From the NCBI GenBank assembly GCA_024697185.1, contig JAILGB010000025.1, forward strand, positions 611-64,610: a stretch of DNA of 64,000 bases, written 5' to 3'. Both the position numbers and the translations under genes were made by a program. The stretch is from Opitutales bacterium. Lineage in GTDB: Bacteria > Verrucomicrobiota > Verrucomicrobiia > Opitutales > UBA953. The notes under the pieces were generated by a model. That model made no database searches, was not told where the DNA came from, and was given only the letters and a program-made list of their open reading frames with translations. Shown one piece after another: positions 17,758-54,419 of the stretch; the first letter of the stretch is position 1; the number at the start of each line of letters is the position of its first letter.

Positions 17758-20700
17758 TTAGATTTCGTTAGGCGTTAACCAGCGGAAGGAAACAACACGG
17801 TAGCGACGTCCCAGAAGACGGTTAACCGCCTTCAAATTGGTGTTGCGCTCAAATTTTTCAAAAAACACGTGGGTCGCATCCGGTTTTTCGTTGCGGTAGT
17901 TGCGCTTGAAAACGAGCGAGTCGAAACTGTATTTGTCCGGGCTGTAAAGCATTTCATCGTCCTGCTCCTCCATCCATTCGGGGGTGCGCTGAACAACGGC
18001 TTCGCAATACGCGCGCGCCACCGGATTGCCGTCGAGACCGACAACGTCGCCATAGGCACGGATCGTGAAAGTGTCCGAACGGACCGACATACCGCCGCCA
18101 AGGCAGGAGAGAATATCGCCCTGACTCAAATAACCGGGACCGCCGGCACGCCCCGAAGGTTTGGCATTGTCGGGAATCAAGTTTTTGTATTCCGACACGT
18201 TGGGGGTGCTTTCGGCAATGTCGTTCCCGTTGTTGAGGGTCGTCTTGTCGATTGCCGCCTGGAGAGCGCCGCGGCGCGCGTGCTCAAGATTGGCGGAATA
18301 GGCGCGACGGTTGACAAAGTCCGCCAAAGACATAAACGGACCGCGTTCCCGCACCTCATCAACTATTTTTTCCGCGAGGGAGTCCAATTCTTTTTCATCA
18401 AGCGAACGATACCAGCGCCAGACTTCACCTTCGTCACCGAAGGAGTCGTTGATCTGCGACTGTGATCCGGCTCCGCCGACATAGCCGCCGAGCTTGGAAC
18501 CGATAATGTTGGCAAAGCGGACGATCGGATAGTTTTGAACCTCCGAAAATGCGCCGTCAATCTTCAAATACTGCTCATGCAAGGAGCCGAGCATAGCCTT
18601 CCAGGCTTCCTTTGAAGTCGAATTGACATTGAACATACCCGTGTAATAGAAATTGCGGGTGACTTTGTTGGGATCCAAGAAATCTTTTTCAATATCTTCC
18701 GCGGCGAACTTTGCCTTGTCGCGGGAACGAATAAACTCGACGCGCTTGTTGGGAAGACAATTTTCCTTGTTTTCGATAATATTGCGGGCGAATTCGTTGA
18801 TCTGTTTGATTTGGCCGTCGCGATCGCCAAAATTTATCGTCGAGAACCAATAGCGATCCCAAATCGCCAGATTGGCGGCAAAAGAATGGTCCGCAAAAGG
18901 CTGGCGGAATTTTGTCGTGATGTCGGTGTCATCGTAGAGAGCTTTGACGCCGGATTGGCGGTTGGAGAGATCAAGACCGACGGGCGGATAGGAGTTGCCG
19001 ACAATGTAGCTCGTTTCCTGTTCGCACCAAGACGCGTCAACACTCTGAAATTGTCCCAAGGAAGTCATCGGCTGGGTCGGGATCTCAAAGAGAACCACAT
19101 TGGTTTGTCCGTCAGAACTTGAAATGTCGTCGCCCCAAAACGCGTTCCCGCCGACATTTTCAATCGGAGAAAATTCATTTTTCGCCGGCAGGATTTCAGA
19201 AACCCATCCGACGCCGGCTGTTGAGAAGTTTTCAACTTCCGTGCCGTTGATGATGTTGCTGTTGGCAGAGTTGAAATTACGCGGCTCGCAAACCCAAGGA
19301 CGGACATTGGTCAGCAGAGGCGACGCGAGAGGCGTATAGCTCGCGGGTGCCTTGTAGATATTGATATCCGCGATCGGCTGTTTGATAACACTGGCGTTCC
19401 AGCCGGAACCGCCGCTTGCGGAAAATGTCTTGCCGACAAAATTGTTTTTGCGGGCGTAGGGATAAAGCGTCAAGCGATGTGACGAAAAACTCTGAATGAG
19501 GCTTTCGTCTCCGACGTCATTGTCGTCGCCAAGAGCTGTCGCAGCCCAAAAGCGCGTCAAAGCGTCCACTGTCGTCAGATTTTGATCGTTTGAGCCCTTG
19601 GGATAAAAAAGATAGAAGGAATACATGTCGCATTCGCCCCAAGAACCCCGCAAGTCAACGCGGAAGGTCGCGCTGCGCAAGTTTTCGAGTTCGTCTTCCG
19701 TGAGAGCGCTCGTCTCGTGTCCGATATAGTTTTTAAACGGCAAAGCATAGCCGGCGACGGAGGAAAGTTCGAAGGTTGTTTTTCCCATACTGGCGACAAC
19801 TTCTCGCGTGCCCATGCCGGAAAGTTTCGGTCTTTCTTTTGAAGCAGGGAAGACAGCCTTGATTTCTCCGGGCTGCAAACGGATTGTTCCCGAAGGTGCA
19901 CGGTCGAGGGAGTTCGTTCCCGCAAAAAAGCGAAAAGCGTGTGAGCGCACCATATAGACGTTGTTGGTGTAATAATAAAGGTCAACAGGCATGTCGCCGC
20001 TCACCTTGAAAAGTCCTGTTTTCTGACGATCATAATAGCCGAATTCCGGCCATTGTTGTCCGTCTGTCCGAACCAAATTGAAGGAGACCGGATAATATTT
20101 GGTGAAAAATGTGCCTACACCGAAAAATTCGATCGGGACATTATAGGGGTTGTAAAGCACCATCATCGGGTCCATGCAAAGCGCATAGGTATCCTGGTTG
20201 AACACCAATGAAAAGCGGAAGACAAAGCGCAAAATGACGGGGGCGATGCGCATCGCCTGGGGGATGACAATCCTGTCTCCGTCAATCATCGGCGTCACCA
20301 AGCGCTGCCCGGTGTCTTGCTGTCCGCGCAAAGCCATCGTACCGACGGAACCTTTGAGCGAGAAAAATCCGTTGTAGGTTTTTCCACTGCCGCTCACGGA
20401 TGTCGCATTCGGACTCTCCCTGCCGTCAACATAGGTGTAGGGACGGATGCCCATCGCCGTAAAAGAAGTGTCGGAAGCGGGTTTGAAACCGCGATAGCCG
20501 GTCGTCTCGACTTCTTTTTTGTAAAAACGATAATAGTTGCGGAAAACATCCCAGGTCGGGCCTCTCAAGATGGCAATGCTCTTCGACTGGCCGCTCCGGT
20601 GTCCCAACTCGGCGTTGTTTTTGGTGTCAAACTCATAAACAAAACCCAAGCCGTCGGTCGGCTGGTTGAGCCACCAGCTCGTCGTATTGTCGTTGGGAAC

Positions 20701-21882
20701 GTTGAAATGGCTCAAAAGATTCATTTTGTTGGTGTCGCCCGATCCGTGGAATTGCGGATAGTCGCGAAAACCTTTTTCAAAATTTTCGCCGGCGTTCCAA
20801 GGCATTTCAAAAGCAAGGGAGAGGTCTGTCTTGAGTCCGCCGTTGTAAACATCGCTCTCGACGCCCTTTGAATAAAATGAAATGTCGTGATAGTATTTTC
20901 TAAAATCGCGCAAACTGGCGGCATCTGTTTTATCGAGATATTCAGCCAAGTCACCGATCGTGACGACATAGGGAAGTTTTGTCGCTCCGACTTCAAGGCT
21001 GTTGCTGAGATCTTGCGTCCAGATTTCCTTCAAATCGCCGAATGTGTCGATGGCTTCACCCGCAAGTCTTTGAGGTGTGGATCTGAAACCTTTGTACCAC
21101 TCATCGACGGAAGAGGCTTTGTTGTCATAATTGTCCGGGAGATTGATTCGTGCCTTGACGCCTTCATCGCCGACCCAATAGGCGAAAGAGCCTGTTGTTT
21201 TTGGCGGGTGTTGATAATTCGTGATTTTTTCGATGGGGACGCGTCTGACTTTGACGATGTTGTCTTCCCATCCATTTTTCTTCCCGAGCGTTCCCGCGCC
21301 AACAAGGGTGATGAGCTCGTTTGATTCGTCTTCGACGCTGTAGGCGCTAATCGCTTTTGAAACAAGGCTTTTGTCAAAGGTTGTGGCGGTCATTTTGTTG
21401 ACAGGGAGCGTGTAGGGCTCAAAACGGCCGCTTTCGCTGTCATAGTTGGAGACAAGCCAGCCGAGAAAGGGTTTGTTGTCGGGAGCGGCATAGTCCCAGT
21501 CGTGCAATTTTGTTTTGTCGCTTTTGTCGAGATTGCCCGTCGCCCAAACGCCAGTCCAATATTTTTTGCCGCGGTAAGGCGTTCCCGACGGGAGAGAGGG
21601 GTTTTGGGAGCCGCCGTTGCCGAGAATGTCCGCCGTGGCGGTGACGCGCTGGTCGTCACCTGTCAACATCTGCAATTGGGCGAGAGCGATGCGGAGACCG
21701 GAGATCGCATTGGTCTGCGCCTGATAACGGCGGATACGATAAGAGGAAATCTGTGTCTCGAGAACGACAAAGGAGACCAAAGATATTGCGATCAGCAACA
21801 TCAACGCCATCATAACCAAGGCGACAACCAGAGAAAATCCGCGTTTGTGATTTCTTGTTTTCTTCAAGAATATTTTTGCCAT
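17758..21882 (-). CDS. giant (1374 aa) pseudopilin-like protein, GspK/PilX-like ends with a large uncharacterised middle
   Basis: Class-III (prepilin-type) signal KRG|FSLVVALVMMALMLLIAISL lacking Glu5, as in GspK/PilX minor pilins. PilX_N-like ETQISSYRIRRYQAQTNAISGLRIALAQL. C-terminal SVRSDTFTIRAYGDV...ARAYCEAVVQR resembles GspK/PilX C-termini. Confidence 0.6.
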   Translation of the reverse strand: MAKIFLKKTRNHKRGFSLVVALVMMALMLLIAISLVSFVVLETQISSYRIRRYQAQTNAISGLRIALAQLQMLTGDDQRVTATADILGNGGSQNPSLPSGTPYRGKKYWTGVWATGNLDKSDKTKLHDWDYAAPDNKPFLGWLVSNYDSESGRFEPYTLPVNKMTATTFDKSLVSKAISAYSVEDESNELITLVGAGTLGKKNGWEDNIVKVRRVPIEKITNYQHPPKTTGSFAYWVGDEGVKARINLPDNYDNKASSVDEWYKGFRSTPQRLAGEAIDTFGDLKEIWTQDLSNSLEVGATKLPYVVTIGDLAEYLDKTDAASLRDFRKYYHDISFYSKGVESDVYNGGLKTDLSLAFEMPWNAGENFEKGFRDYPQFHGSGDTNKMNLLSHFNVPNDNTTSWWLNQPTDGLGFVYEFDTKNNAELGHRSGQSKSIAILRGPTWDVFRNYYRFYKKEVETTGYRGFKPASDTSFTAMGIRPYTYVDGRESPNATSVSGSGKTYNGFFSLKGSVGTMALRGQQDTGQRLVTPMIDGDRIVIPQAMRIAPVILRFVFRFSLVFNQDTYALCMDPMMVLYNPYNVPIEFFGVGTFFTKYYPVSFNLVRTDGQQWPEFGYYDRQKTGLFKVSGDMPVDLYYYTNNVYMVRSHAFRFFAGTNSLDRAPSGTIRLQPGEIKAVFPASKERPKLSGMGTREVVASMGKTTFELSSVAGYALPFKNYIGHETSALTEDELENLRSATFRVDLRGSWGECDMYSFYLFYPKGSNDQNLTTVDALTRFWAATALGDDNDVGDESLIQSFSSHRLTLYPYARKNNFVGKTFSASGGSGWNASVIKQPIADINIYKAPASYTPLASPLLTNVRPWVCEPRNFNSANSNIINGTEVENFSTAGVGWVSEILPAKNEFSPIENVGGNAFWGDDISSSDGQTNVVLFEIPTQPMTSLGQFQSVDASWCEQETSYIVGNSYPPVGLDLSNRQSGVKALYDDTDITTKFRQPFADHSFAANLAIWDRYWFSTINFGDRDGQIKQINEFARNIIENKENCLPNKRVEFIRSRDKAKFAAEDIEKDFLDPNKVTRNFYYTGMFNVNSTSKEAWKAMLGSLHEQYLKIDGAFSEVQNYPIVRFANIIGSKLGGYVGGAGSQSQINDSFGDEGEVWRWYRSLDEKELDSLAEKIVDEVRERGPFMSLADFVNRRAYSANLEHARRGALQAAIDKTTLNNGNDIAESTPNVSEYKNLIPDNAKPSGRAGGPGYLSQGDILSCLGGGMSVRSDTFTIRAYGDVVGLDGNPVARAYCEAVVQRTPEWMEEQDDEMLYSPDKYSFDSLVFKRNYRNEKPDATHVFFEKFERNTNLKAVNRLLGRRYRVVSFRWLTPNEI

Positions 21883-28857: not shown

Positions 28858-30243
28858 TTAATGCCTTAAAAGAGTGCGCAATTTTTCGAGTTCTTTGCGC
28901 CGCTCCGCGTCTGTTTCGACAGTGTCCCTCACTTTTTTTCGAGCGTTGATGACGGTGCCGTGATCGCGCCCGCCAAAAGCTTGTCCGACTGCAGTCTGAG
29001 TGCTTTTGGTAAGCTCCAGACAAAGGAACATCGCCACTTGTCGGGCGTAGGCGATACTGGCGGTGCGGGACTTGCCGCAGAGATCGCCGATTTCAAGTTT
29101 GTAAAATTTCGCAACTTCATCCTGAACAGTTTTAATGCTGATGGAGGAGGTCGAGTCGGAAGAGACAAAACTGCCGAGCACTTCTTCAAGTTGCGCCTGA
29201 TTCAAAGTGTTAACTTTGCGAAAACGGACATAATTGATCAGCGTATTCAAAGCGCCTTCAAGATTGCGAACATTGCGAGTAATCTTTTGAGTGATAAAAT
29301 CGAAGGCTTCCTTGAAATTGGGGAAGAAACTGAAGTTCCGCCGTTGCGCCTTATCTTTCAAAATCGCCGCACGAACAACTTCGCGGGGCGGGTGGATGTC
29401 CGCGGTGATGCCTTGTTTGAAGCGCGAAATCAAACGATCGTCCAAAACCATCGCGGAGGCTTCCCTGTCGCAAGTCAGGACAATTTTGCAACCTCTCATG
29501 CAAAGCGTGTTAAAGGTATGGAAGAACTCCTCCATTGTCTGCTCCTTGCCGGCGATAAACTGAATATCGTCAACAAGCAAAAGGTTGAGCGTGCGGTATC
29601 GATCGCGAAATTCGTTCGTTTTGCGCTCGGCGAGACTGTTAATATAATCGTTGGTAAAAGATTCTCCGGAAACATAAAGAATGCGAACTCCAGCATATTT
29701 TTTATAAGCGGCGTTGGCAATCGCATGCAGCAAGTGGGTCTTGCCGATCCCTGAGGGACCGTAGATAAAAAGCGGATTGCTGCTCTGGCGGTCATAAAGC
29801 TCCTCGACAATCGACTTTGCCGCGGCGCAAGCCAATTCGTTTTCCTGGCCTTCGATAAAAGTTTCAAAGGTGTTGTCCGGATTAATCGATGTCGGCAAAG
29901 AAGGTTTTTCATCCTCCTTCAAAATCGGTTTTTTTCCAGAAGACTTTTTGGGCACTTCAGGCCAGGCTGCCGGTTTTTCCTCTTCCGAATCGCCACATTC
30001 TTCAAACTTCAAATTGATCGTGGAATCCCCCAAGACGGAAACAAACGCGTCTTTTAAAATTTCCAGACCGCCATTATTGTCAATCCAAACCGACTGGAAA
30101 TAAGAAACCTTAAAAGTATAGGTGCGGGATTCGGAATCATAGGAGTCAATCTTAAAATCACGAAGAATATTGCAAAGATAATTGCACCCTCTCGAAGAAA
30201 GATTGTCCAAAACACTTAGCCAAATGGATGATAAATCGTTCAT
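28858..30243 (-). CDS. dnaA: chromosomal replication initiator protein DnaA
   Basis: AAA+ motifs LFIYGPSGIGKTHLLHAI and LLVDDIQF. C-terminal DnaA-box-binding HTH (QVAMFLCLELTKSTQTAVGQAFGGRDHGTVINA). Confidence 0.95.
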   Translation of the reverse strand: MNDLSSIWLSVLDNLSSRGCNYLCNILRDFKIDSYDSESRTYTFKVSYFQSVWIDNNGGLEILKDAFVSVLGDSTINLKFEECGDSEEEKPAAWPEVPKKSSGKKPILKEDEKPSLPTSINPDNTFETFIEGQENELACAAAKSIVEELYDRQSSNPLFIYGPSGIGKTHLLHAIANAAYKKYAGVRILYVSGESFTNDYINSLAERKTNEFRDRYRTLNLLLVDDIQFIAGKEQTMEEFFHTFNTLCMRGCKIVLTCDREASAMVLDDRLISRFKQGITADIHPPREVVRAAILKDKAQRRNFSFFPNFKEAFDFITQKITRNVRNLEGALNTLINYVRFRKVNTLNQAQLEEVLGSFVSSDSTSSISIKTVQDEVAKFYKLEIGDLCGKSRTASIAYARQVAMFLCLELTKSTQTAVGQAFGGRDHGTVINARKKVRDTVETDAERRKELEKLRTLLRH

Positions 30244-31115
30244 TTTTCTTCACAAACAATGATGTTTATTCACAAAAACGCTTATTTCGGTTAACAACCT
30301 CGTCTTATTTTGTCGCAAAAGCAGGATTTACCGAAAAAAATCCGCAAACAGATTCTGCAAGACAGGCAGTTGCGCCTCTTTCTCGTGACAAATTAGCCGA
30401 AACAGCGATAAATAAAGGGTTTTCAAAGTTTTTTTTCATTTTAAAAAAGATATATTTCTATGAGCGCAAAATAGTTCACGCTGAGGTTTCACTCTACAAA
30501 CAAGTCTAATTTTAGCCCCTAAATCCCTCAATAAATTTTTATGAACACATTATTCACAAAAAAAAGTGAATAAAACACCCTCCTTTGATTTAAATTTCCA
30601 AAAAAATAAAACTTTTAGAGGGAAATGGGACATTTTTTACATAAAATTTTATTTATTTCTTTATTATTATAAAAAATCAAATCAAAAAACCTTATTCTTT
30701 TCAAAAAATAATAAAGACGAAAAAACAAGACATTCCTTTTTAGTTGAATATTTTTCTTTTTTTAGTCAAATCGAGTTTTTTCGAGCTTTGAAATCTTAAT
30801 CTTAGCCCTTAAAAATGCCGTTCCCGTCTCGATTTAGCAGATGTTTTTCTCAAATTTTCGGAATCCAGAATTCCATCCCCTTAAAATAGCTGTATTTTTT
30901 TTACATTCCCGATAAAAATCCAAAAGAAGCACCTGATTGTCGTTCCCGATAATTTTGACATAAGACGGGAATTTTATGGAACTTTTTATTTCGTAATATT
31001 ATTTTTTTACAAAATAATCATCGCAACAGAAGATCGTTGTTCCTTCCGGTCAAGTTTTTACGGGTGAGGGTGGGTATTTCGTTTTTTCTCAAAATATTTT
31101 TCTATCACAACATAT
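30244..31115. other. putative chromosomal replication origin (oriC): DnaA boxes plus an AT-rich unwinding region
   Basis: Immediately upstream of dnaA. TTATTCACA at 30266-30274 and 30550-30558. Inverted near-box AGTGAATAA at 30565-30573. Weaker TTCTTCACA at 30246-30254. Extremely AT-rich tract at about 30600-30790. No credible ORF. Confidence 0.6.
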
Positions 31116-31156
31116 AAAAAAGCGTTCCCGTGGGAATAATCACGGGAACGCTTTTT
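31116..31156. terminator. bidirectional terminator built from an inverted pair of the genome word
   Basis: AAAAAGCGTTCCCGTG (31116-31132 region) / CACGGGAACGCTTTTT (31141-31156) with an 8-nt loop. Lies 20 nt after the stop of the 31176-32102 gene. Confidence 0.75.
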
Positions 31157-31175: not shown

Positions 31176-32102
31176 TTAAAAATCGTCGTCGAAGAAATCA
31201 TCGTCTTCGTCGCTTGCGTCGCTGCTGTCGCCACCTTCCTCTTCGCTATCTCCGCTATCGTCGGAGTCGTCGCTTGAAGAAGAGTCGCTGTCGGACAATG
31301 AAGAAGCCAAGCTGGGTTTCTCCGTCATTTGGGCGATATAGGCTTTTTTGAAATTGGTGCGCGATGCGTGGATTTTAAATGTTTGATTTTTGTTGTTAGC
31401 GTTGCGCACCGTCAACAGCCCGCTGTCGGTCATATCAAGGATGAAAACCTTTGTATTTTTGGGGATTGTCGTTTCTCCGACCTTTTTCCCGTTATTATCC
31501 AAAATGTTGATCTTTGTTCCCGCCTTTGTAATTTTAATGCTTGTCGGCCACGTTGTTTTTTTGTGGCGGATACTGGCGTAATTGATAGTTATTTTCTTTT
31601 TCTTTTCGGGAACGGCTTCCGGCGCGGGCTCATCGCTTGCCGCCTCGTCGGCACCGTCGCTATCAGTGTCGGTGTCGTCGGAGCTCGAATCGTCACCGGC
31701 TTCGTCGGAACTGTCTTGATCGTCAGCGGAGGGACTTGCATCGTCGCTATCGGTGCTTTCTTCTGCCGCGGCGGCATCAGCCTTTTGCTTTTCGGCCTCT
31801 GCGGCTGCGCGTTCCTGCTGACGACGTGCTTCTTCCTCTTTTTTCACCTGTTCGATTGCTGCGGCAATCTCATCTTGGGAAGCGGCGCGTTTTTTGGCTT
31901 CCGCTTCTTTTTTAGCTTTAGCTTCCTGTTCCGCCTTGCCGTCCTCCACCTTTGAAAGGAGGATATTGGCGAGATCTGTTTTGATCCAGCCGCGCTGTTC
32001 GCAGAGCAGGTAGGCCATAAAAATAAGAATCGCCAGAAATACGCCGATGACGATTTTTAAAAGGGTGCTAAAAAAACCACCGTTATTTTTTTCGTTAGAC
32101 AT
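31176..32102 (-). CDS. membrane-anchored hypothetical protein with charged coiled-coil, poly-acidic tracts and a small beta-rich domain
   Basis: ATG at 32102 (MSNEKNNGGFF). One TM (LLKIVIGVFLAILIFMAYLL). KAEQEAKAKKEAEAKK coiled segment, D/S/E-rich tracts, and C-terminal DDDFFDDDF. Confidence 0.5.
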   Translation of the reverse strand: MSNEKNNGGFFSTLLKIVIGVFLAILIFMAYLLCEQRGWIKTDLANILLSKVEDGKAEQEAKAKKEAEAKKRAASQDEIAAAIEQVKKEEEARRQQERAAAEAEKQKADAAAAEESTDSDDASPSADDQDSSDEAGDDSSSDDTDTDSDGADEAASDEPAPEAVPEKKKKITINYASIRHKKTTWPTSIKITKAGTKINILDNNGKKVGETTIPKNTKVFILDMTDSGLLTVRNANNKNQTFKIHASRTNFKKAYIAQMTEKPSLASSLSDSDSSSSDDSDDSGDSEEEGGDSSDASDEDDDFFDDDF

Positions 32103-32140
32103 TTTATATTTTGTTTTAGAAGTTAATGTTAAAAAATTTA

Positions 32141-33076
32141 TCAAATCCAATCGAGACCGATATCAATCCACGGGACATTGTGGGTAAGGGCTCCGCAGGA
32201 AACAAAATCCGCGCCGACCGTGCCCAAGAGGGGAAGAGACTCGAGAGTGACACCGCCGCTGATTTCCGTCCAGGCTTCGTCCCCGATCATTGCGACAGCC
32301 GTCTTGAGGTCGTCAATTGAAAAATTGTCAAGCAGGATAATATCCGCTCCCGCTTTTAAAACCGGTGGGATCTGCTCGAGAGAATCGACCTCGACTTCGC
32401 AAAGCAAATCCGGACGCAGATTTTTTGACTGGCGGACGAGGGCTTCGAGGGCCGTTCCCGCTCCGGCATTGTCTGCTGCGAGATGATTGTCCTTGAGCAT
32501 CAAGCGATCAAAAAGCCCGATGCGATGATTCCAGGCACCGCCGCAACCGACAGCGTATTTGTCCAAAACGCGATGTCCGGGCGTGGTTTTGCGAGTATCC
32601 AGCAAATGTGTGTGTTGCGAATTGAGCGCATCGACATACTTGGATGTAATCGTCGCGATCCCGCTCATCCGTTGCAAAAAGTTGAGCATGATCCGCTCCG
32701 CCATCAGCATTTCCGTCGCAGAGCCTTCGATCGTCGCGACAACCGTCTTGGCGGGAACGCGATCGCCGTCTTTTGCCAGAACTGTCACTTTGACGTTCCC
32801 GCCATAGACGGCAAGAATGTCTTCAAGCATATAAAGTCCTGAGAGAGTGCAGGCTTTTCTGGCAACAAAATTGGCTTTTGCCGTCGTGGCGGGCGGCGCG
32901 GAAACCTCCGTCGTTGCATCGCCCGCTTTTTGCGGTTTCATCGCATCGACCAATCCCGTTCCCGCGATATCCTCATCGCGAGCGAGCGTTATAATCGTCT
33001 TCAAATAAAGCGGATCAATCTCCTTCCAATCCAATCGATGGCAGAGACCCGGTGCTTCCTGTAAGCTCTTTTTCAT
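32141..33076 (-). CDS. nadC: nicotinate-nucleotide diphosphorylase (carboxylating)
   Basis: LDTRKTTPGHR, MLKDNH and GADIILLDN motifs of QPRTase. Confidence 0.9.
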   Translation of the reverse strand: MKKSLQEAPGLCHRLDWKEIDPLYLKTIITLARDEDIAGTGLVDAMKPQKAGDATTEVSAPPATTAKANFVARKACTLSGLYMLEDILAVYGGNVKVTVLAKDGDRVPAKTVVATIEGSATEMLMAERIMLNFLQRMSGIATITSKYVDALNSQHTHLLDTRKTTPGHRVLDKYAVGCGGAWNHRIGLFDRLMLKDNHLAADNAGAGTALEALVRQSKNLRPDLLCEVEVDSLEQIPPVLKAGADIILLDNFSIDDLKTAVAMIGDEAWTEISGGVTLESLPLLGTVGADFVSCGALTHNVPWIDIGLDWI

Positions 33077-33112: not shown

Positions 33113-34384
33113 TTAATTGCTCCGGAGCGCCTTCGTGCGCTGTTCGAGCGTCGGATGAGAATAATAAAAGTTCACATAAAAAGGATGCGGCGTGAGGTTG
33201 GAGAGGTTTTCCTTGTTCAGCTTTCTGAGGCCGGAGACCAAAGCTTCGCCGTTACCGAGAAGTTGTTTGGCGTATGCATCCGCCTCATACTCGTGCTTGC
33301 GCGAGAGAAAGGCGGAAAGCGGCGAAATCCAAAAAGCGATGAGCGATGCGAATTCACTGACGAGGAAAAACGCGGGAACGATCATCAGATTTTGGCGATA
33401 CTCGAAACCGAAGGCCTCAAAAAACGCCGGCCATCGCAATATCGCTGCCACGAGTCCGAATGCCAAAAATCCCAAAAAGAAAGAAAGGAAAAGGTGTTTT
33501 GTAATATGTCCCTTTTTAGAATGTCCGATTTCGTGGGCGAGCACCGCGCAAATTTCCTTCGGCTCCAGCTGTTTGATCAAGGTGTCAAAAAGGACGATGC
33601 GGCGCCATTTGCCAAATCCTGAAAAATAGGCATTGGAGTGTCCGCTGCGCTTGGAGCTGTCAATAACTTCGATTTTGTCGGCGACAAATCCGGCTTTCTC
33701 GGCGAGAGCGACAAGTTCCGTCTTAAGTTCGCCCTCGGGGAGCGGTGTCAGCTTATTAAAAAGTGGCAAAATCAGCTTGGGATAAAGCACCATCAAAAAG
33801 AGCTGAATCACAAAAAACGCGCATTGTGCAAAAATCCACCAAGTATCCGGGAACAAATGATAAAAACCGATTAACAGGGACGCCACGGGAACGCCGATTA
33901 TAAATTCCAAAGCCCATCCCTTAAGCTGGTCAAAAACCCAAAGACGCGGCGTTGTTTTGTTAAAGCCGTGTTTTTCCTCGATTTTGAACGTCTCGTAGAG
34001 ATCGAGCGGCAAATCGGTCAGGGACATCAAAAAAATCATCGCGACACAAATAACGCTTTCGCGCCAGGTCGCCGACCAGCCTGCCGTTCCCGCGTCCAAG
34101 CCGATCCATTGGCTGGCCCAGGCGTAGATGCAGGCATAGAGACCCAAAACCCAAAGCAATTCCCATACGACATCGTAAGGTTTTGTCAGCAGGGAAAATT
34201 TGGAGTTTTCGAGCGAGTAGGCTACGGATTTTTGATAGTCCTCCCATTTGACATGGTCCGCATATTTTGCGGGAACGGCGTCTTTATGGCGCAACATTTC
34301 CCGGCGATTGAGCCAGGACAAAGAAAGTTGCGCCGCCGTTTTCGCGCCCAAAAAAACGAGATAGGCGATAAGGATCAGGCTCAT
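33113..34384 (-). CDS. M48-family (Ste24/HtpX-like) zinc metalloprotease
   Basis: Multi-TM N-terminus, HEIGH (LAHEIGHSKKGH), and downstream EYEADAY and YYSHPTLEQR. Confidence 0.85.
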   Translation of the reverse strand: MSLILIAYLVFLGAKTAAQLSLSWLNRREMLRHKDAVPAKYADHVKWEDYQKSVAYSLENSKFSLLTKPYDVVWELLWVLGLYACIYAWASQWIGLDAGTAGWSATWRESVICVAMIFLMSLTDLPLDLYETFKIEEKHGFNKTTPRLWVFDQLKGWALEFIIGVPVASLLIGFYHLFPDTWWIFAQCAFFVIQLFLMVLYPKLILPLFNKLTPLPEGELKTELVALAEKAGFVADKIEVIDSSKRSGHSNAYFSGFGKWRRIVLFDTLIKQLEPKEICAVLAHEIGHSKKGHITKHLFLSFFLGFLAFGLVAAILRWPAFFEAFGFEYRQNLMIVPAFFLVSEFASLIAFWISPLSAFLSRKHEYEADAYAKQLLGNGEALVSGLRKLNKENLSNLTPHPFYVNFYYSHPTLEQRTKALRSN

Positions 34385-36426
34385 TGCTTTGCGATCAGCT
34401 CCTCGTTGTTTTTGCTTCCGCGAATATCGTTCAGCAAAGCTTCGAGCGCCTCTGCAACCGGCATTTCTTCCGTATTTTTGCGGATGCGGTTTTCCAACGC
34501 CAGTTCTTTTTCGCTCATCAAAAGCTCTTCGCGACGATTGGAAGTGTTGGCAATGTCGATTTGCGGGAACTCCGCCTTTTTGACCAGTGTCAACTTGGCG
34601 TTGCTCGTGCCGTCAAACTCTTCAAAGACGATTTCCTTGGCCTTGACCGGCGAATGGGTCGTAAGCGAGGCGATAATCGTAATCGAACCTCCGTTGCTAT
34701 AGTTGCAAGCGGCGCTAAAAAGATTTTTGGGCTTTGTAAGCGTCAAAATATCGATACTGCCGGAGACAAATTTCTGTCCGTTTGAACGCAAATTGTTGTA
34801 GGCTCGGGCAAGACGTGTCAGCGAATCGAGCAGAATGATCGTGTGTTTGCCGAGTTCGGCGCGACGGCGGGCGTGTTCGATCGTCATTTCGGCGATATGG
34901 ACGTGCGTCTCGTCCGGTTTGCTGTTGTCGGAGGCTACAATGGCAAATTTTTTCTCCTCTTTTCTGAACAGGGCGATGTCTTCGCGATGCGCGTCGATGA
35001 GCAATGTTGTGATTTCCGCATCGGCGGCATTTTCCGAAAGCGCTCTCGCGAGCGTTTTCATGATCGGCACCCTGTCAAATCCCTCCGGCGCGTTGATAAT
35101 CAGGCGCTGACCGTATCCGATAGGGCAAATCAGGTCGATAACTCTCATTGCCAGATTGCTTTTTTCGCTCAAGGTTTCCGATTCGAGACGAATACGGCGA
35201 TCCGGATAAACGGGCGTCAAAGAGGAGAAATCCGGCAATTCCGCGACTTTGACGGGATCGCATCCTTCGACTTCCAATATGCTTACAATCATCGGGGCCG
35301 TCTCACCGGGCATCGGCGGGAACGCGACACCCTTGACGCGATGACCGCGCTTCAAATTGTATTTTTTGATCAAAAGTGCGGGAACGAAGGCTGAAAATTC
35401 GACGCGTTCGTAATTTTCGCAAGCGTAGAGCAAAAGCCCGTTCCCGTTATATTCGAGTAAATCGAGCGTTCCCGTGATCAAAATCGGACGACGGGCGATA
35501 TAGGCTTCCCTAAGAATGTTCAAAATCAAATTGCTGCGGTTCAGGCTTTGGGTATTTTTAACATTTAACGCCTCCGCGAACTCTCTCAACTTTCCGGGAT
35601 GCAGACCGTAAAATTCCGCCAGCGCCAACGGTTCTGCGGGAACGTCATCGACAAGCTCTTCAACGATTTGTGTGATTTCGGCACGCGCAAACGGATCGTT
35701 AGGATTGGCGTTGGGCACTTCGCGACGCATGATTTTTTTGGTATGCGCGGCTCGTTGTGCCAACTTGCTCAAATATTCTTCGTTGTTGAGGTTGTTAAGG
35801 TCAAATTTTTCCCCCAGTTTGAGGGCGGGAATCTCTGTGGAATCCCGATTTGCCAGCTTTGTGTAATTGGGTGCGGTAACGGCAGGAGCTCCAAACCTCA
35901 AAGGTTTCTTAGCCGGTCCGCCCGAAGAAAAGCGCGGTGCCGTTCCCGCGGGAACGCCAGCCGGACGCATTTGCGGGCGAGGGGCAAAACGAGAAACTGT
36001 TTGGGAGGCGGAAGGCGCACGGAGCGCCCAAGCAGGCAATTTGCGCGGCTCGGGAACATTTTCAGGGCTGGGATAATGGAGCTCCGGCTTCAAGGTTTCC
36101 GCGGGAACGCCTTCTTGTCGCGGGCGCGGATTGAGGGCGCTCGCTTGCGGCTTTTCATCGGCAACGCTTTTATTTTCCAGAACGGGCGCTTTTTCTTCCA
36201 CGATTGTTTTTTTCATATTTTGAGAGGCGCTCATCGCCAGGCGGCGCGCGGCTTCGAGGAGCATTTCTGGCGACTCCGCCATACTCAGCTCGCTTTCGAG
36301 ATTTTCACAAATATTTTTTTCGTCGCAAAGCATCGCAGGATTTTCTTGGGCAGGGGTTTCCGCCACGATTTTACGGGGACGTCCGCGGCTGCGTTTGGGT
36401 TGTGGTGTCGGTGTTTCTTCTTCCAT
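34381..36426 (-). CDS. Rho transcription-termination-factor homologue with a long N-terminal extension and degenerate ATPase motifs
   Basis: Colinear with E. coli Rho from the RNA-binding OB domain to the C-terminus (IILLDSLTRLARAYN, GGSITIIAS, VFEEFDGTSN, FPQIDI). However, the P-loop reads APEGFDRV and DERPEE reads DAHRED. Overlaps the M48 start by 4 nt; coaE lies 11 nt upstream. Confidence 0.75.
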   Translation of the reverse strand: MEEETPTPQPKRSRGRPRKIVAETPAQENPAMLCDEKNICENLESELSMAESPEMLLEAARRLAMSASQNMKKTIVEEKAPVLENKSVADEKPQASALNPRPRQEGVPAETLKPELHYPSPENVPEPRKLPAWALRAPSASQTVSRFAPRPQMRPAGVPAGTAPRFSSGGPAKKPLRFGAPAVTAPNYTKLANRDSTEIPALKLGEKFDLNNLNNEEYLSKLAQRAAHTKKIMRREVPNANPNDPFARAEITQIVEELVDDVPAEPLALAEFYGLHPGKLREFAEALNVKNTQSLNRSNLILNILREAYIARRPILITGTLDLLEYNGNGLLLYACENYERVEFSAFVPALLIKKYNLKRGHRVKGVAFPPMPGETAPMIVSILEVEGCDPVKVAELPDFSSLTPVYPDRRIRLESETLSEKSNLAMRVIDLICPIGYGQRLIINAPEGFDRVPIMKTLARALSENAADAEITTLLIDAHREDIALFRKEEKKFAIVASDNSKPDETHVHIAEMTIEHARRRAELGKHTIILLDSLTRLARAYNNLRSNGQKFVSGSIDILTLTKPKNLFSAACNYSNGGSITIIASLTTHSPVKAKEIVFEEFDGTSNAKLTLVKKAEFPQIDIANTSNRREELLMSEKELALENRIRKNTEEMPVAEALEALLNDIRGSKNNEELIAKQ

Positions 36427-36437
36427 TTTTCTATTCC

Positions 36438-37028
36438 TTAATTGTGTTGGTCCTCAAAAAATTTAGGGAGGACGGATTTTATTTGTTGTTCTAAAAATTC
36501 AAGATTGCCGTCATTAAAAATGACAATGTCGGCGCGTTTCATTTTCTCCTCGACCGGCAGTTGGGCGGCGATGCGTTCCCGCGCACGGGAAGACTGGAGG
36601 CCGCGATTTTTAAGCCGCTCGATTTGGACTTGTTCCGATGCGGCGAGACAAAGAGTGAGATCAAATTGGGATTCGAGATTTTTTTCAAAAAGCAGGGGGA
36701 TTTCACAAACGCACGGGCGATTTTGCCGTTCGGCGTCTTCCATTACTTTTTTTTCTTCCGATGCGATTTGAGGGTGCAAAAAATTTTCCAAGATTTTACG
36801 TTTTTCGGGAACGGAAAAAATTAAGCGAGCCAGCTCCTGTTTGTCGATTTTGCCGTTGTTCAAATATTGCGGACCGAAATTATTTTTAACAAAAAGGACC
36901 GTTTCCCGCCTATTGAGAATTTCTTCATTAATAGCATCTGCGCTGCTTGTCAAACAACCGAGCCGGTCAAAAATCTTTAATGCCGAAGTTTTGCCGCAAC
37001 CGATTCCTCCTGTCAGTGCAATATTCAT
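36438..37028 (-). CDS. coaE: dephospho-CoA kinase
   Basis: MNIALTGGIGCGKTS P-loop; about 196 aa. Confidence 0.9.
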   Translation of the reverse strand: MNIALTGGIGCGKTSALKIFDRLGCLTSSADAINEEILNRRETVLFVKNNFGPQYLNNGKIDKQELARLIFSVPEKRKILENFLHPQIASEEKKVMEDAERQNRPCVCEIPLLFEKNLESQFDLTLCLAASEQVQIERLKNRGLQSSRARERIAAQLPVEEKMKRADIVIFNDGNLEFLEQQIKSVLPKFFEDQHN

Positions 37029-37108
37029 CTGCTCCTTATAATTTCCCTTTTTGAATCATTGTATAACAATCGACAAATTTTATCAATTTTTTTAACTTTA
37101 AAATTAAA

Positions 37109-40718: not shown

Positions 40719-40755
40719 AAAAGAGCGTTCCCGCAACTTTCGGGAACGCTCTTTT
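40719..40755. terminator. bidirectional terminator built from an inverted pair of the genome word
   Basis: AAAAGAGCGTTCCCG (40719-40733) / CGGGAACGCTCTTTT (40741-40755) with a 7-nt loop. Lies between the convergent AAE transporter and glgP genes. Confidence 0.75.
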
Positions 40756-50390: not shown

Positions 50391-50639
50391 AACTGTGTTT
50401 TCCTGTTAAATTTTAAAGATTTTTTTGATTTTAAACTGGACTTTCATTATAAATTCCCGTTCCCGCAAGAGCAATATCATTCATTCCCGGACAAAAATCG
50501 AAAGACACGACTCGGGAACGACAAAAAAAAATGATATTTTTGGTTTTTTAAAAAAATTAAACGCCCTCGACTCAAATAAAATTGCGGCGGGAACGAAGAA
50601 TCTTTTTAATGGTAAATGTCAGGTTTTTGTAAATTTGCC

Positions 50640-53600
50640 ATGTATTTGAAACAATTGGTCATCAACGGCTTCAAAAGTTTTGCCGATCGGACGCGCATTG
50701 AACTGCGTCCCGGCATTGTTGCGATTGTCGGCCCCAACGGTTGTGGCAAATCCAACATCGTTGACGCGATTCGCTGGGTTTTGGGCGAACAAAGCGCCAA
50801 AGCCCTTCGCGGCGGGAACATGCACGATGTCATTTTTTCGGGAACGGACAAACGCAAAGCCCTCTCCTTTTGCGAAGTCGAACTCGTTTTTGCCGATTGC
50901 GAAAAAGACTTGGGAACGGCGTTTCACGAAATCTCCATTCTGCGCCGAGTCTCCCGCGACGATTCCTCGGAATATTTTCTCAACGGCAAAATCTGCCGCC
51001 TAAAAGACATTCAGCGGCTTTTTATGGATACAGGCGTCGGGCGCGTCTCCTATTCCTTCATGGTCCAGGGACAAATCGACCAGGTGCTCTCCGCCAATCC
51101 CGCCGAACGGCGCGCGCTTTTTGAAGAGGCTGCGGGCATCACGCGTTACAAGACACAACGGAAAGAAGCGCTCGGAAAACTGGCGCTCGTCGATCAAAAT
51201 CTCTCGCGGGTGACCGACGTTCTCGACGAACTCACCCGGCAAATCAACACCCTCAAACGACAGGCGGCAAAGGCGCTGCGCTACAAACGCCTCCGCCATC
51301 GCCTGACCTGCCTCGACAAGGCAAACCAGGCCTTTCTCTTCGCCGAACACCGCAACGCCGTCACAGAACTCGCCCGCGAAGCGCAAACCTTGCGGGAACG
51401 CCTCAACACCCTCCAAGACGCCCTCGCCCAACGCGAACAGACACTCGCAGAGTCCAAAGTCCGCCGCGGAGAACTCCTCGCAAAAATCGAAGAACAGCAA
51501 CAACAGATTTTCTCAACACGCTCTGCAAAAGAATCGACGGAAAACAACATCAAATACTCCGACGCGCGCATTCGGGATCTCGACGAACGCAACTTGGGAA
51601 TCGAACAGGAAATCGCCGGCATGCGTTCCCGCCAGGGCGAACTTGAAGCCCGCATCGCCGGCGGAGGCGACGAACAGGCGAAACACGCCGGAGATTTGAG
51701 TTCTGTGGAAAATCTTTTCCGCGCCCGCCAAGATGAGTTCGAAAAAGCCTCCAATGCCCTAAACGCGACAGAGTCCGCCCTCGCCAAAAACCGCGAAGCA
51801 CTGCTGTTGGCAGAAAACGAAATCACGCGTTCCCGCGCCAGTGTCTCCAAGCTCGAACTCGATTTGCGCTCCTCCGAAATCCGCCACACGGAACTCGCCA
51901 ACCGCATCGCCCAAACGCGCAACGAGCAAAACGCCCTGCGTTCCCGCCACGAAGAAGCCCAAGCCTTCGCCGAACAACATCGACAAAGCCAGGCGCAAAT
52001 CCAAAGCGAAATCGCAGCCGCTAAGGAGGAAGCCAAAAACCTTCTCATAAGATTTAGAGAAAAACAACAGGAGATCACCGCCCTCGACCGCCAGGTCGCG
52101 CGAACAGCGGCGCAACTGACAATGCTCAAACAGCTGCAGGCAAAATTTGAAGGCTTTAGCGAAAGCGCCAAAAGCATCCTCAAAGGCGAGATCCCGGAAA
52201 TCGTTCCCGCGGGAACGGCAAAAACCTTGAACGCCCTGCTCGAAATCGAAGAGAATGTTTACGCCGGAGCCATCGAACTTTTGCTCGAAAGCAACAGCGG
52301 CACAATCTGCCTTCCCGAGGGAACGCCGATCACACGACTGATCGAAACGCTCAACGGGAAAAATCTCGACGCCGTCCAAATCTCCCTGCCGGAACTCTGC
52401 AAAAACATTCCCGGACAAAACGACAAACAAAATCTGCCGGAATTTATCGTTCCCGCCAACCGTCTGGTCAAAGTCCGCGATGCAAATTTCGAAAACCAGG
52501 TCCGGACAATTTTGGACCGCTGCTATATTTGCGACGACAGCGGACAATTCCTCCAATTCTGGCGGGAACGCCCCGATTTCGATTTTGTCCTCATCGCCAC
52601 TCTCAACGGCGAACTGATCGACCGGCGGGGAACGCTAAAGACACCCTCCGGACAAAAACAGACAGGCGTCTCGTCATTCCGGCGCGAGGCGGAAATCGCC
52701 GCGCTGGCGAAACTCTCGCAGGCGGAAAATGAAAAACTGACCGAAGCCAACGAAAGCGCAATGGCGATCCAACGGCAAATGGACGAAAACGAAACGCTCG
52801 TCGAAACCCTGCGGACACGAGCCGCAAGCGTCGCCCAGGAACTTTCCGCCGTCAGCGCAGACGAACGCAACGCCGCAACGGCACTCGAAAACAATATCGC
52901 CGCTCTCGAAAAAATGACGGCGCAACTCGAAGATTTGGAGCGGGAACGGGAACGCAACACCCAAAAAATGAGCGAAGCCAAAAATCTCCTCGAATCCGGA
53001 GAATCCACAATCGGCAAACTCAAAGAGACAATCGCACAAAAAGAAAACGAAATCACAACACTTCGCGGGAACGCGGATGCCGCCCGGGAAGCCGCCAACG
53101 AAATAAAATTCGAACTCGCCAAGAAAAAACAGCAGCTCGAACTCATCGAACAGGAAGTGCAAAATATCCGTTCCCAAGTCTCCGAAATGCAACATCGCAT
53201 CGAGACCCGCGAAAACGAAAAACGCAACAACCAAAACCAACGTGACGCCTACAGCGAACAAATCGAAAAAGATAAGGCAGCCGTCCTAAAACTCCAAGAA
53301 CAGCTCGACAACGGGAACGCCGTTCTCGAAAACATCCGCAACGATTGCCGCAATGCCGACCTCGCCATCGAAACGCTCGACCAGTCCATGAGCGCCGAAC
53401 GCGAAGAGGTTCACAAAAACGAAAACACCCTTAAAGACCGCGAAATCAAACTTTCAGAAGAAACCTTGTTGTGCAAAAACATCGCCGAAAAAATCTCCGG
53501 TGACTACCAGACCGATATCACCTCCATCGATTGGAAACGGGAACTGTGGCGCGCGGACGAAAATTTTGAAAGCAAAATCAATTTCGCCGAACTCGAAGAC

Positions 53601-54419
53601 GGCGACGAGGAAAATCCGGACGGGAACATTGAGCCGCCCTCTAAAAAACATCTCAATGTCGAGCCCGGCGAAGAAGACTTGGCAGCGATGGACTCGACCG
53701 ACTGGCAGCCGCTTCGCCGAGAAATCGAGGATTTGCGGGAACGCCTCCGCGCATTTGGAGCCATCAACCACGCCGCCATCGACGAATATCTCGAAGTGCG
53801 GGAACGCTTTAATTTCACAAAAAAACAATCCGACGACCTTTGGACCGCCAAAAACGAACTTACGGCTGCCATCGACGAAATTAACACGACCTCCCAAAAA
53901 CTTTTCACCGAAACCTTCGAACAGATCCGCAAAAATTTTGCCTTCACATTCGAACGGCTTTTCCACGGCGGCGAAAGCGATCTCACCCTCGTGCAATCCG
54001 ACGATGTTCTCGAATCCGGCATCGAAATCGTCGCCCGCCCGCCAGGAACAAAATTGCGCAGCATCTCTCTGCTCTCCGGCGGGCAGCGCACGATGACAGC
54101 CGTCGCCCTGCTTTTCGCCATCTACATGGTCAAGCCCTCGCCGTTTTGCGTGCTCGACGAACTCGACGCTCCGCTCGACGACGCCAATGTCGGACGCTTT
54201 ACCGACATCGTCAAAGAATTTACAAAATACTCCCAGTTCCTCGTCGTCACCCACAACAAAAAGACCGTCTCCGCAGCCAACATGATCTACGGCGTCACGA
54301 TGCAGGAACGCGGTGTCACCCAAGTCCTCTCGATGAGATTCAATCACGACAACGGCAAAACCGAAAACGCCACAAGCCCGGAGCTCGGCAAAGGCGGCTC
54401 CTTCAATATGGCGCGCTAA
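50640..54419 (+). CDS. smc: chromosome segregation protein SMC
   Basis: [27 protein letters not shown], long coiled coils, hinge, [16 protein letters not shown] and [11 protein letters not shown]. Confidence 0.95.

Follow-up and report, generated by a model that had tools for sequence, protein, structure and literature searches.

Rho is a textbook example of a hexameric RNA translocase, and models of Rho-dependent transcription termination all end in its ATP-powered action. In Escherichia coli Rho, substitutions of K184, T185, E211 or R212 abolish both ATPase activity and termination. Here, we describe a rho-derived gene from an Opitutales bacterium whose product, P0001 (681 amino acids), has lost the P-loop and the catalytic glutamate of the motor. 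The gene lies in a 64,000-nucleotide stretch of DNA (assembly GCA_024697185.1, contig JAILGB010000025.1, positions 611 to 64,610), which was analysed at its full length and is referred to as the window. P0001 is a pseudo-enzyme derivative of Rho, and we are highly confident that selection maintains it as an ATPase-dead orthologue of the primary Rho, found in a small clade of uncultured gut Opitutales.

A 2024 survey of 2,730 genomes called the Rho ATPase domain highly conserved, defined a "functional Rho" by the presence of the RNA-binding and ATPase domains, and included no species of the Planctomycetes-Verrucomicrobia-Chlamydiae (PVC) group among those listed without a functional Rho (PMC11347177). 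Atypical second-copy Rho proteins were found to be common in PVC bacteria and Actinomycetota, and second copies were described as retaining the catalytic residues (PMC11347177). A 2025 review applied the term "catalytically inactive" only to the open-ring conformational state of Rho. Our literature searches found no report of a natural Rho that lacks Walker A or the P-loop or is catalytically dead.

Compared with E. coli Rho (5jji, 3ice, 1pv4), P0001 shares the predicted whole-chain fold, a colinear alignment, Walker B, R269 and R366. It differs in having no P-loop Lys or Thr, no catalytic Glu and no Arg valve, in its altered Q and R loops, in a four-residue deletion at E. coli positions 344-347 and in an N-terminal addition of 275 residues. 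The "Group B" second-copy Rho proteins (type 4 or 2d; NF041509 paralog_Rho2) are atypical as well, but they are the reverse of P0001, since they lack the N-terminal domain and keep all the catalytic and bicyclomycin-pocket residues. A short-form paralog_Rho2 was ruled out for P0001, which scored 249.3 bits against NF041509 (cut-off 628) and has the N-terminal domain; of eight further representatives scanned, whether short-form, from sisters or partially degenerate, none proved to be a true Rho2.

By analogy, P0001 may also be compared with subunit B of the V1/A1 ATPases and subunit alpha of the F1 ATPase, members of the superfamily of the Rho C-terminal domain (CTD) that have lost their catalytic residues and kept the fold and a trans-acting arginine. 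V1-B has also lost its P-loop while keeping both. The likeness would be one of logic and not of family membership, as V1-B and F1-alpha have a known catalytic partner encoded alongside, whereas Rho is normally a homo-hexamer.

Results

The catalytic motifs are replaced in a continuous reading frame

The rho-derived gene occupies positions 34381..36426 of the minus strand, stop codon included, and was identified as an open reading frame with NCBIfam, PDB and Foldseek matches. In phmmer searches of the PDB, Thermus Rho aligned colinearly to residues 277-679 (E 9.5e-66) and E. coli Rho to residues 278-677 (E ~1e-60), with no gaps near the catalytic motifs. This agrees with the original prediction, made from the letters of the window, that the C-terminal ~400 amino acids align colinearly with Rho. 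The conserved strings that it had listed (IILLDSLTRLARAYN, GGSITIIAS, VFEEFDGTSN and FPQIDI) were all found in P0001.

The predicted replacement of the P-loop APPKAGKT by APEGFDRV was seen both in the alignment to PDB chains and by reading the DNA directly. Residues 446-453 (35068..35091, minus strand) are encoded by gcg ccg gag gga ttt gac agg gtg and stand in place of APPR[TV]GKT, so that the Walker A motif GxxxxGK[ST] (E. coli 179-185) is absent. The second predicted replacement, of LLIDERPEEV by LLIDAHREDI, was equally evident in alignment and DNA: Ala479-His480 (34987..34992, minus strand) take the place of the catalytic Glu211 and the Arg-valve Arg212 (E. coli numbering), and the codons at 34995-34978 (gac gcg cat cgc gaa gac) follow in the same continuous frame as those of the P-loop. 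Two other elements of the active site were retained. The Walker B aspartate, Asp534 (34825..34827, minus strand; E. coli D265), stands in an intact DSLTRLARAYN, and the arginine finger, Arg631 (34534..34536, minus strand; E. coli R366), is kept with the adjacent K367 changed to R. In the alignment, LLDSLTR and SNRRE of P0001 correspond to LLDSITR and GTRKE.

A frameshift or a displaced Walker A motif was ruled out. The frame is single and continuous, as had been claimed, and the remaining two frames of the gene contain 20 and 31 stops. Neither [AG]x4GK[ST] nor GK[ST] matched anywhere in P0001, so no intact GxxxxGK[ST] exists elsewhere in the protein, and no GK[ST] was present in the other frames of this region. 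We know of no P-loop NTPase that functions with such a combination of changes. Because of what is known of P-loop NTPases and of Rho mutants, the combined changes are predicted to prevent productive binding of Mg-ATP as well as its hydrolysis, and P0001 is predicted to have no ATPase activity.

The degenerate form was found in gut Opitutales

Among 5.8 billion proteins, a search turned up the degenerate motifs in two relatives, P0002 and P0003, at 68% and 62% identity; with P0001, the degenerate form made up three 90% clusters. The next match, P0004 (39% identity), had the same N-terminal architecture with canonical APPRVGKT and DERPEE. In an exhaustive phmmer search of 1.84 billion cluster representatives, the degenerate form was one 50%-identity cluster (P0002, 969 bits), followed by the canonical P0121 at 387 bits. 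The original prediction had proposed a comparison with relatives to see whether the motifs are clade-wide. They are: APEGFDR was invariant across the three species-level lineages and 15 strain variants, and DAH was fixed in all three species, which are referred to below as the degenerate clade.

Cluster P0002 comprises 22 sequences, drawn from Logan, ENA and NCBI assemblies, with APEGFDR in 15 of the 15 listed, and P0003 was present in three further sequencing runs. The degenerate motifs were recovered from the Logan runs ERR10140819, ERR10140824, DRR848875, DRR848614 and SRR22936631, from the metagenome-assembled genome (MAG) CAKUQY01 and from NCBI records, amounting to at least six samples from differing studies and pipelines. 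All the sources are metagenome assemblies, which is the one point in favour of a sequencing, assembly or binning artefact. However, independent assemblies carry identical motifs with conserved synteny; an assembly error in this segment is ruled out, and an artefact of any of these kinds has practically no probability left.

Fifteen loci, all from gut-associated Opitutales MAGs, were found by scanning GTDB genomes with clade-specific N-terminal motifs. They include Ca. Spyradosoma, Ca. Spyradenecus and animal-gut RGIG bins. Only one carried the degenerate form (L007, in the Hadza human-gut MAG CAKUQY01); the other 14 were canonical at every motif present, L018 ending after the catalytic motif. 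The organisms with a degenerate rho are human-gut Opitutales, Hadza samples included.

The labels of four MAGs look wrong. CAZPYE01, CAZWIK01, CAVFCB01 and CAVEBA01 (loci L011, L015, L012 and L016) are labelled Enterobacteriaceae, Bacteroidaceae or Sphaerochaetaceae, while the coaE-rho loci in them are nearly the same as in Opitutales MAGs, and L011 equals L009 in the Rho core.

Changes are concentrated in the motor domain

Invariant positions were defined as the 136 alignment columns constant in E. coli Rho and 17 canonical PVC Rho proteins; 127 of these fall in the CTD and nine in the N-terminal domain (NTD). In the degenerate clade, 48 of the 127 CTD columns were changed in all members and 19 more in some (67/127), whereas all nine NTD columns were kept. 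The residues at the positions of the primary RNA-binding site (PBS) were also those of the canonical sisters.

In E. coli numbering, the P-loop carries P180E, G183D, K184R and T185V/A, and the catalytic segment E211A, R212H and P213x. The Q loop shows G282Q and G288S/T and the R loop T323S, G324P, M327A and D328K, the DTGS motif having become HSP[VN]. K283, S/T286 and the K326 position (Arg in P0003) are kept in these loops, yet the substitutions fall at otherwise invariant sites, and the predicted local distance difference test (pLDDT) score of the loops in a structural model is below 50. Elsewhere in the CTD, K336D/N, E342K and R353A were found, together with the four-residue deletion at 344-347 that removes R347. 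D265, S266, T268, R269 and R366 are kept, and K367 has become R.

The gene lies at the primary rho locus

As predicted, P0001 is encoded at a coaE-rho locus. The coaE gene (dephospho-CoA kinase; TIGR00152, 138.5 bits) lies directly upstream at 36438..37028 on the minus strand and is the first gene of the operon. It was found immediately upstream of rho in 20 of 20 Opitutales loci examined and in four of four Kiritimatiellia loci, one of which (L025) has a canonical Rho. Because coaE is upstream in all of these, the place next to coaE is ancestral for the primary rho of PVC bacteria. The genes that follow rho, namely the M48 protease gene, nadC, a hypothetical gene and dnaA, are common to the degenerate clade only.

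A neighbour-joining tree was built on 410 gap-free core columns. The degenerate clade was sister to a clade of Spyradosoma and Spyradenecus, which has a canonical Rho at the same locus. Its stem branch measured 0.73 substitutions per site, compared to 0.06-0.13 in the sister branches, and its root-to-tip distance was 1.52 versus 0.82. Identity to E. coli Rho was 48-49% for the canonical sisters and 32-34% for the degenerate proteins. P0001 is therefore an orthologue of the primary Rho by both position and phylogeny.

The canonical sisters (P0004, P0121 and L008-L021; Ca. Spyradosoma, Ca. Spyradenecus and RGIG bins) resemble P0001 in much more than location directly after coaE. They have one or more N-terminal AT-hooks, a long disordered region, the DSxE...FDxNxL segment described below, the helix bundle and the RecA-type CTD. 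Their oligonucleotide/oligosaccharide-binding (OB) fold has the same unusual NGLLLY and PPMPGETAP motifs and identical residues at the PBS positions. Unlike P0001, they keep APPR[TV]GKT, DERPEE, DTGSKM and GTRKE as in E. coli; the first three of these are missing from P0001.

P0001 evolves under purifying selection

Between the three species, dS was saturated (>1.4), and dN was 0.10-0.20 in the ATPase-like domain and 0.15-0.21 in the NTD. The dN/dS ratio (omega) by the Nei and Gojobori (NG86) method, which is rough with saturated dS, was about 0.06-0.15 in the folded domains (ATPase-like domain about 0.06-0.14) versus 0.18-0.35 in the disordered region. That region, residues 1-190, evolves fastest, with 54-60% identity between species. 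Strain variation had the same distribution: 16 of the 26 amino-acid polymorphisms fell in residues 1-190, seven in the 276-residue CTD and two in the NTD, which corresponds to 2.5% of sites in the CTD versus 8.4% in the disordered region.

The identity of the flanking CoaE proteins was used as a clock for the divergence of the Rho domains. For canonical pairs (CoaE identity 53-59%), the CTD was 87-88% identical and the NTD ~60%. Within the degenerate clade (CoaE 62-66%), the corresponding values were 73-82% and 74-78%, and between degenerate and canonical proteins (CoaE 45-54%) they were 40% and 43-46%. The CTD is thus only 40% identical to that of the canonical sisters where ~87% would be expected from CoaE. 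By these CoaE-calibrated identities, the NTD kept its usual constraint, and the CTD changed abruptly along the stem branch before coming under weaker but still strong constraint. The omega values, the calibration and the pattern of strain polymorphisms together make a pseudogene untenable.

Domain architecture and predicted fold

The monomer of P0001 was modelled with AlphaFold2 from a sequence alignment. The model reached pLDDT 75-92 over most of residues 205-681 and fell below 50 at residues 1-37 and 68-202 and in the Q- and R-loop regions. A three-helix bundle (269-310), the strands of the OB fold and a RecA-type core were all present. In the RecA-fold region (410-680), pLDDT was 75-92 outside the two loops, and the P-loop topology of strand (441-447), loop and helix (453-466) was modelled at 81-89. 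E. coli Rho chains ranked first when the model was compared with the PDB by Foldseek; the match to 5jji_C had a target-normalised template-modelling (TM) score of 0.93 and a root-mean-square deviation of 2.3 A over 418 columns at 33% identity. Because of the modelled helix bundle and the whole-chain match, P0001 is a complete Rho chain with an N-terminal addition and not a second copy of the type without an N-terminal domain.

Family profiles gave a similar picture. The helix bundle and OB-fold RNA-binding domain (residues 276-405; 35212..35601, minus strand), also seen in the model, scored 28.8 bits for Pfam Rho_RNA_bind (cut-off 27) and 24.1 bits for Rho_N, just below its cut-off of 24.9. 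The RecA/F1-type CTD without a catalytic site (residues 406-681; 34384..35211, minus strand) scored 49.5 bits for ATP-synt_ab (PF00006). The NCBIfam Rho equivalogs aligned end to end on residues 277-679 without reaching their cut-offs, with 300.5 bits for NF006886 (cut-off 315) and 293.3 bits for TIGR00767 (cut-off 509.45). The canonical sister P0121 scored 538.5 and 532.5 bits, above both.

The N-terminal extension had been described as ~270 residues of low-complexity, Pro/Ala-rich sequence. The extension is real, and its first 190 residues (35857..36426, minus strand) are indeed of low complexity, being rich in Pro (14.7%), Ala (13.2%) and Glu and, by composition and pLDDT, predicted to be mostly disordered. 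The description does not hold for residues 191-275 (35602..35856, minus strand), which are conserved and probably folded. This pre-Rho segment, which has the motif DSxExxxLxLGxxFDxNxLxxEE, is 73-81% identical within the degenerate clade (dN 0.15-0.23), and helix and beta elements are predicted in it at pLDDT 55-77. An AT-hook-like motif, KRSRGRPRKI, was noted at residues 11-20 (36367..36396, minus strand) as a weak Pfam AT_hook match (E 0.11). Both the extension and the AT-hook were inherited from the canonical Opitutales Rho and are not special to P0001.

These N-terminal elements are more widely shared. One or two AT-hook-like RGRP[RP]K motifs are common to the Rho proteins of Opitutales and Kiritimatiellia (including L009-L021, P0122 and P0123). 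The segment of ~85 residues with DSxE..LxLG..FDxNxL..EE is common to the Rho proteins of gut Opitutales, where it lies between the disordered region and the helix bundle and is as constrained as the OB domain.

Milder decay in other PVC Rho proteins

Single catalytic elements are missing from several other long Rho proteins of PVC bacteria among the 150 representatives nearest to P0001. The Opitutales singleton P0151, which is coaE-linked, has E211A and R366Q. In Kiritimatiellia, P0211, P0403, P0405, P0407-P0409, P0413, P0417 and P0170 show E211A/D, D210G, GKT changed to GRR or GRS, D265A, or R366C/L/Q/H/D, and some of these clusters comprise 18-20 member sequences. The three Kiritimatiellia members whose loci were examined (P0170, P0403 and P0413) all lie at a coaE-rho locus. 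The coaE-linked, partly degenerate genes are at L022 2811-4649, L023 6001-8130, L024 6001-8124 and L026 731-2704.

These proteins belong to independent lineages (31-36% identical to P0001) that have each lost only one to three elements. Most keep a recognisable P-loop, and none has the combination of APEGFDR and DAH. Motor-site decay of the primary-locus Rho therefore seems to be recurrent in PVC bacteria, and the degenerate clade, with its whole P-loop gone, is the most extreme case.

Discussion

How might a Rho without a motor act? P0001 could assemble Rho-like rings or oligomers through its conserved RecA-fold domain. The new acidic residues Glu448 and Asp451, together with Arg452, would fill the empty nucleotide pocket and could possibly pair with the retained Arg631 and Arg632 of the neighbouring subunit. 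Nascent or untranslated RNA may be captured through the unchanged crown of helix bundles and OB folds, and the AT-hook and disordered region could perhaps add further RNA binding and DNA binding. P0001 would then no longer translocate and so extract RNA from the polymerase; it might instead be a passive factor, bound to RNA or associated with RNA polymerase, whose role is to coat RNA, obstruct elongation or provide a scaffold. Classical Rho-dependent termination would have been lost in the lineage with a degenerate rho. That P0001 works alone, without ATP, is our preferred though tentative reading, to which we give slightly less than an even chance. The fuller proposal, that P0001 is the only Rho-family gene product in these genomes and represents a termination motor of the essential type that a free-living gut lineage turned into a selected, ATP-independent, RNA- and DNA-binding ring, is somewhat more doubtful still.

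Several points weigh against such a solitary role, and most of them favour the idea that P0001 is either a non-catalytic partner of an intact second Rho in mixed hexamers or a regulatory copy set free by a termination-competent paralogue. As a partner, P0001 would lend its long N-terminal RNA- and DNA-binding module and its arginine finger to the active sites of the other protein, in the manner of F1 alpha/beta or V1 A/B. Thirty PVC genomes are reported to have two rho genes, and the formation of hetero-hexamers has been suggested (PMC11347177). P0001 keeps Arg631 (R366) with the adjacent basic residue, D265, S266 and R269 while its own P-loop and catalytic Glu are gone, which is the pattern of V1-B; by analogy, a kept arginine finger and Walker B segment would suit a non-catalytic subunit of a hetero-oligomeric RecA-fold assembly. 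The recurrent decay at coaE-rho in other PVC lineages would also be more easily tolerated with a back-up. On the other hand, tblastn with E. coli Rho found no second rho in the window or in any fetched locus with its 10 kb on either side, which together cover a few percent of each genome. The GTDB scan found one rho locus per genome, although its query consisted of Opitutales-type N-terminal motifs, so that a divergent paralogue would escape it, and the MAGs are incomplete. P0001 is also a complete Rho at the primary locus and not a second copy of the type without an N-terminal domain. Moreover, with roughly half of all invariant positions retained in any case, the retention of R366 is not statistically telling. 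Overall, a partner or regulatory role is the strongest rival of the solitary one, and we consider it somewhat less probable. Two further reservations about the solitary role concern our own evidence: ring assembly, RNA binding and the salt bridges are inferred from sequence, and the omega values are approximate, as noted above.

Two other explanations fared much worse. P0001 might still bind or hydrolyse nucleotide at an unconventional site as a weak or altered motor, given the retained RecA fold, Walker B Asp, R269 and Arg finger and the strict conservation of the replacement P-loop, which suggests that the loop has some role. However, G183D, K184R and T185V would cost it the loop-shaping glycine, the phosphate-binding lysine and the Mg-binding hydroxyl, E211A the catalytic base, and R212H, K336D/N, R353A, the deletion of R347 and the altered Q and R loops strike nearly all the nucleotide-sensing elements, which makes this very improbable. 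Marginally less probable again is a functionless, decaying relic, in effect a pseudogene still undisrupted. Its scores under the curated Rho cut-offs and its long stem branch would fit such a relic, but the frame is intact in three species with saturated synonymous sites, none of the folded domains has an omega anywhere near 1, all being far lower, and the CTD (73-82% identity) is more conserved than the flanking CoaE (62-66%). The strain polymorphisms also avoid the folded domains, and the replacement motifs are invariant.

A selected Rho without a motor has consequences for how Rho is counted and studied. Domain-based censuses would overcount the lineages that have Rho-dependent termination. 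P0001 would also be a natural separation-of-function variant for the motor-free roles of Rho, such as RNA capture, "stand-by" binding to RNA polymerase, condensates and R-loop control. If it has a partner, it would give a first indication that Rho can form hetero-oligomers organised like the F1 and V1 ATPases. If it is the sole Rho, then the long PVC Rho with its AT-hook and disordered region would have a second, motor-independent function strong enough to preserve the protein once termination activity is gone, and the recurrent catalytic-site decay at coaE-rho in other Opitutales and in Kiritimatiellia would point to something general in PVC bacteria.

Neighbouring genes and other features of the window

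Downstream of the rho-derived gene lies a gene for an M48-family (Ste24/HtpX-like) metalloprotease (33113..34384, minus strand). The two had been described as translationally coupled, and they do overlap by the four nucleotides ATGA in the window (...aag caa tga / atg agc ctg). Tight coupling is not conserved across relatives, as the overlap is 1 nt in the P0002 species and is replaced by a 111-nt gap in the P0003 species. The M48 gene is next to rho only in the degenerate clade and is absent beside the canonical sister rho. With a clade-specific adjacency and variable coupling, a functional tie between rho and the protease was not supported.

A consensus scan found a promoter-like site, TTGATA-17-TACAAT, upstream of coaE (37058..37086, minus strand). 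At the other end, the string of coaE, rho, M48 gene, nadC and hypothetical gene finishes in a strong bidirectional intrinsic-terminator hairpin with a stem of 16-17 bp and T-runs on both sides (31117..31156). No Rfam match was found in the 64-kb window. The hypothetical gene (31176-32150, minus strand) lies between nadC and the region upstream of dnaA and encodes 324 amino acids. Its product is hydrophobic in an N-terminal segment, has a charged stretch of the KAEQEAKAKKEAEAKK type and carries long acidic tracts rich in Ser, Asp and Glu, the C-terminal tail among them. It had no NCBIfam match, and tblastn similarity within the clade covered only a segment of ~90 residues. The dnaA gene follows at 28858-30243 (minus strand). 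Directly upstream of it, a gene-free, lower-GC stretch of ~870 bp (30244-31116), bounded by the terminator, is likely the oriC region, so the presumed replication origin and the rho-like operon are no more than a few kb apart.

A 9-mer, CGGGAACGC, mostly preceded by G, occurs in 84 copies per 64 kb compared to 1.3 expected, on both strands and also within genes. Inverted pairs of it form the stems of strong bidirectional terminators, for example at 31122-31151 and 40725-40749. Nearly all gut-Opitutales loci, of the degenerate and canonical rho clades alike (L001-L016, L020 and L021), contain 1.1-3.0 copies per kb, compared to only 0.1-0.3 per kb in L017-L019 and the unrelated L022. In both its density and its pairing at terminators, the 9-mer is reminiscent of the uptake sequences in the DNA of Neisseria and Pasteurellaceae.

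The window also contains a 1374-amino-acid open reading frame without a Pfam match (17758-21882, minus strand) and a Schlafen-group-3-type helicase gene (21-1685, plus strand; 247 bits). A strong AT skew at 52-54 kb is due to an SMC gene (50616-54419).

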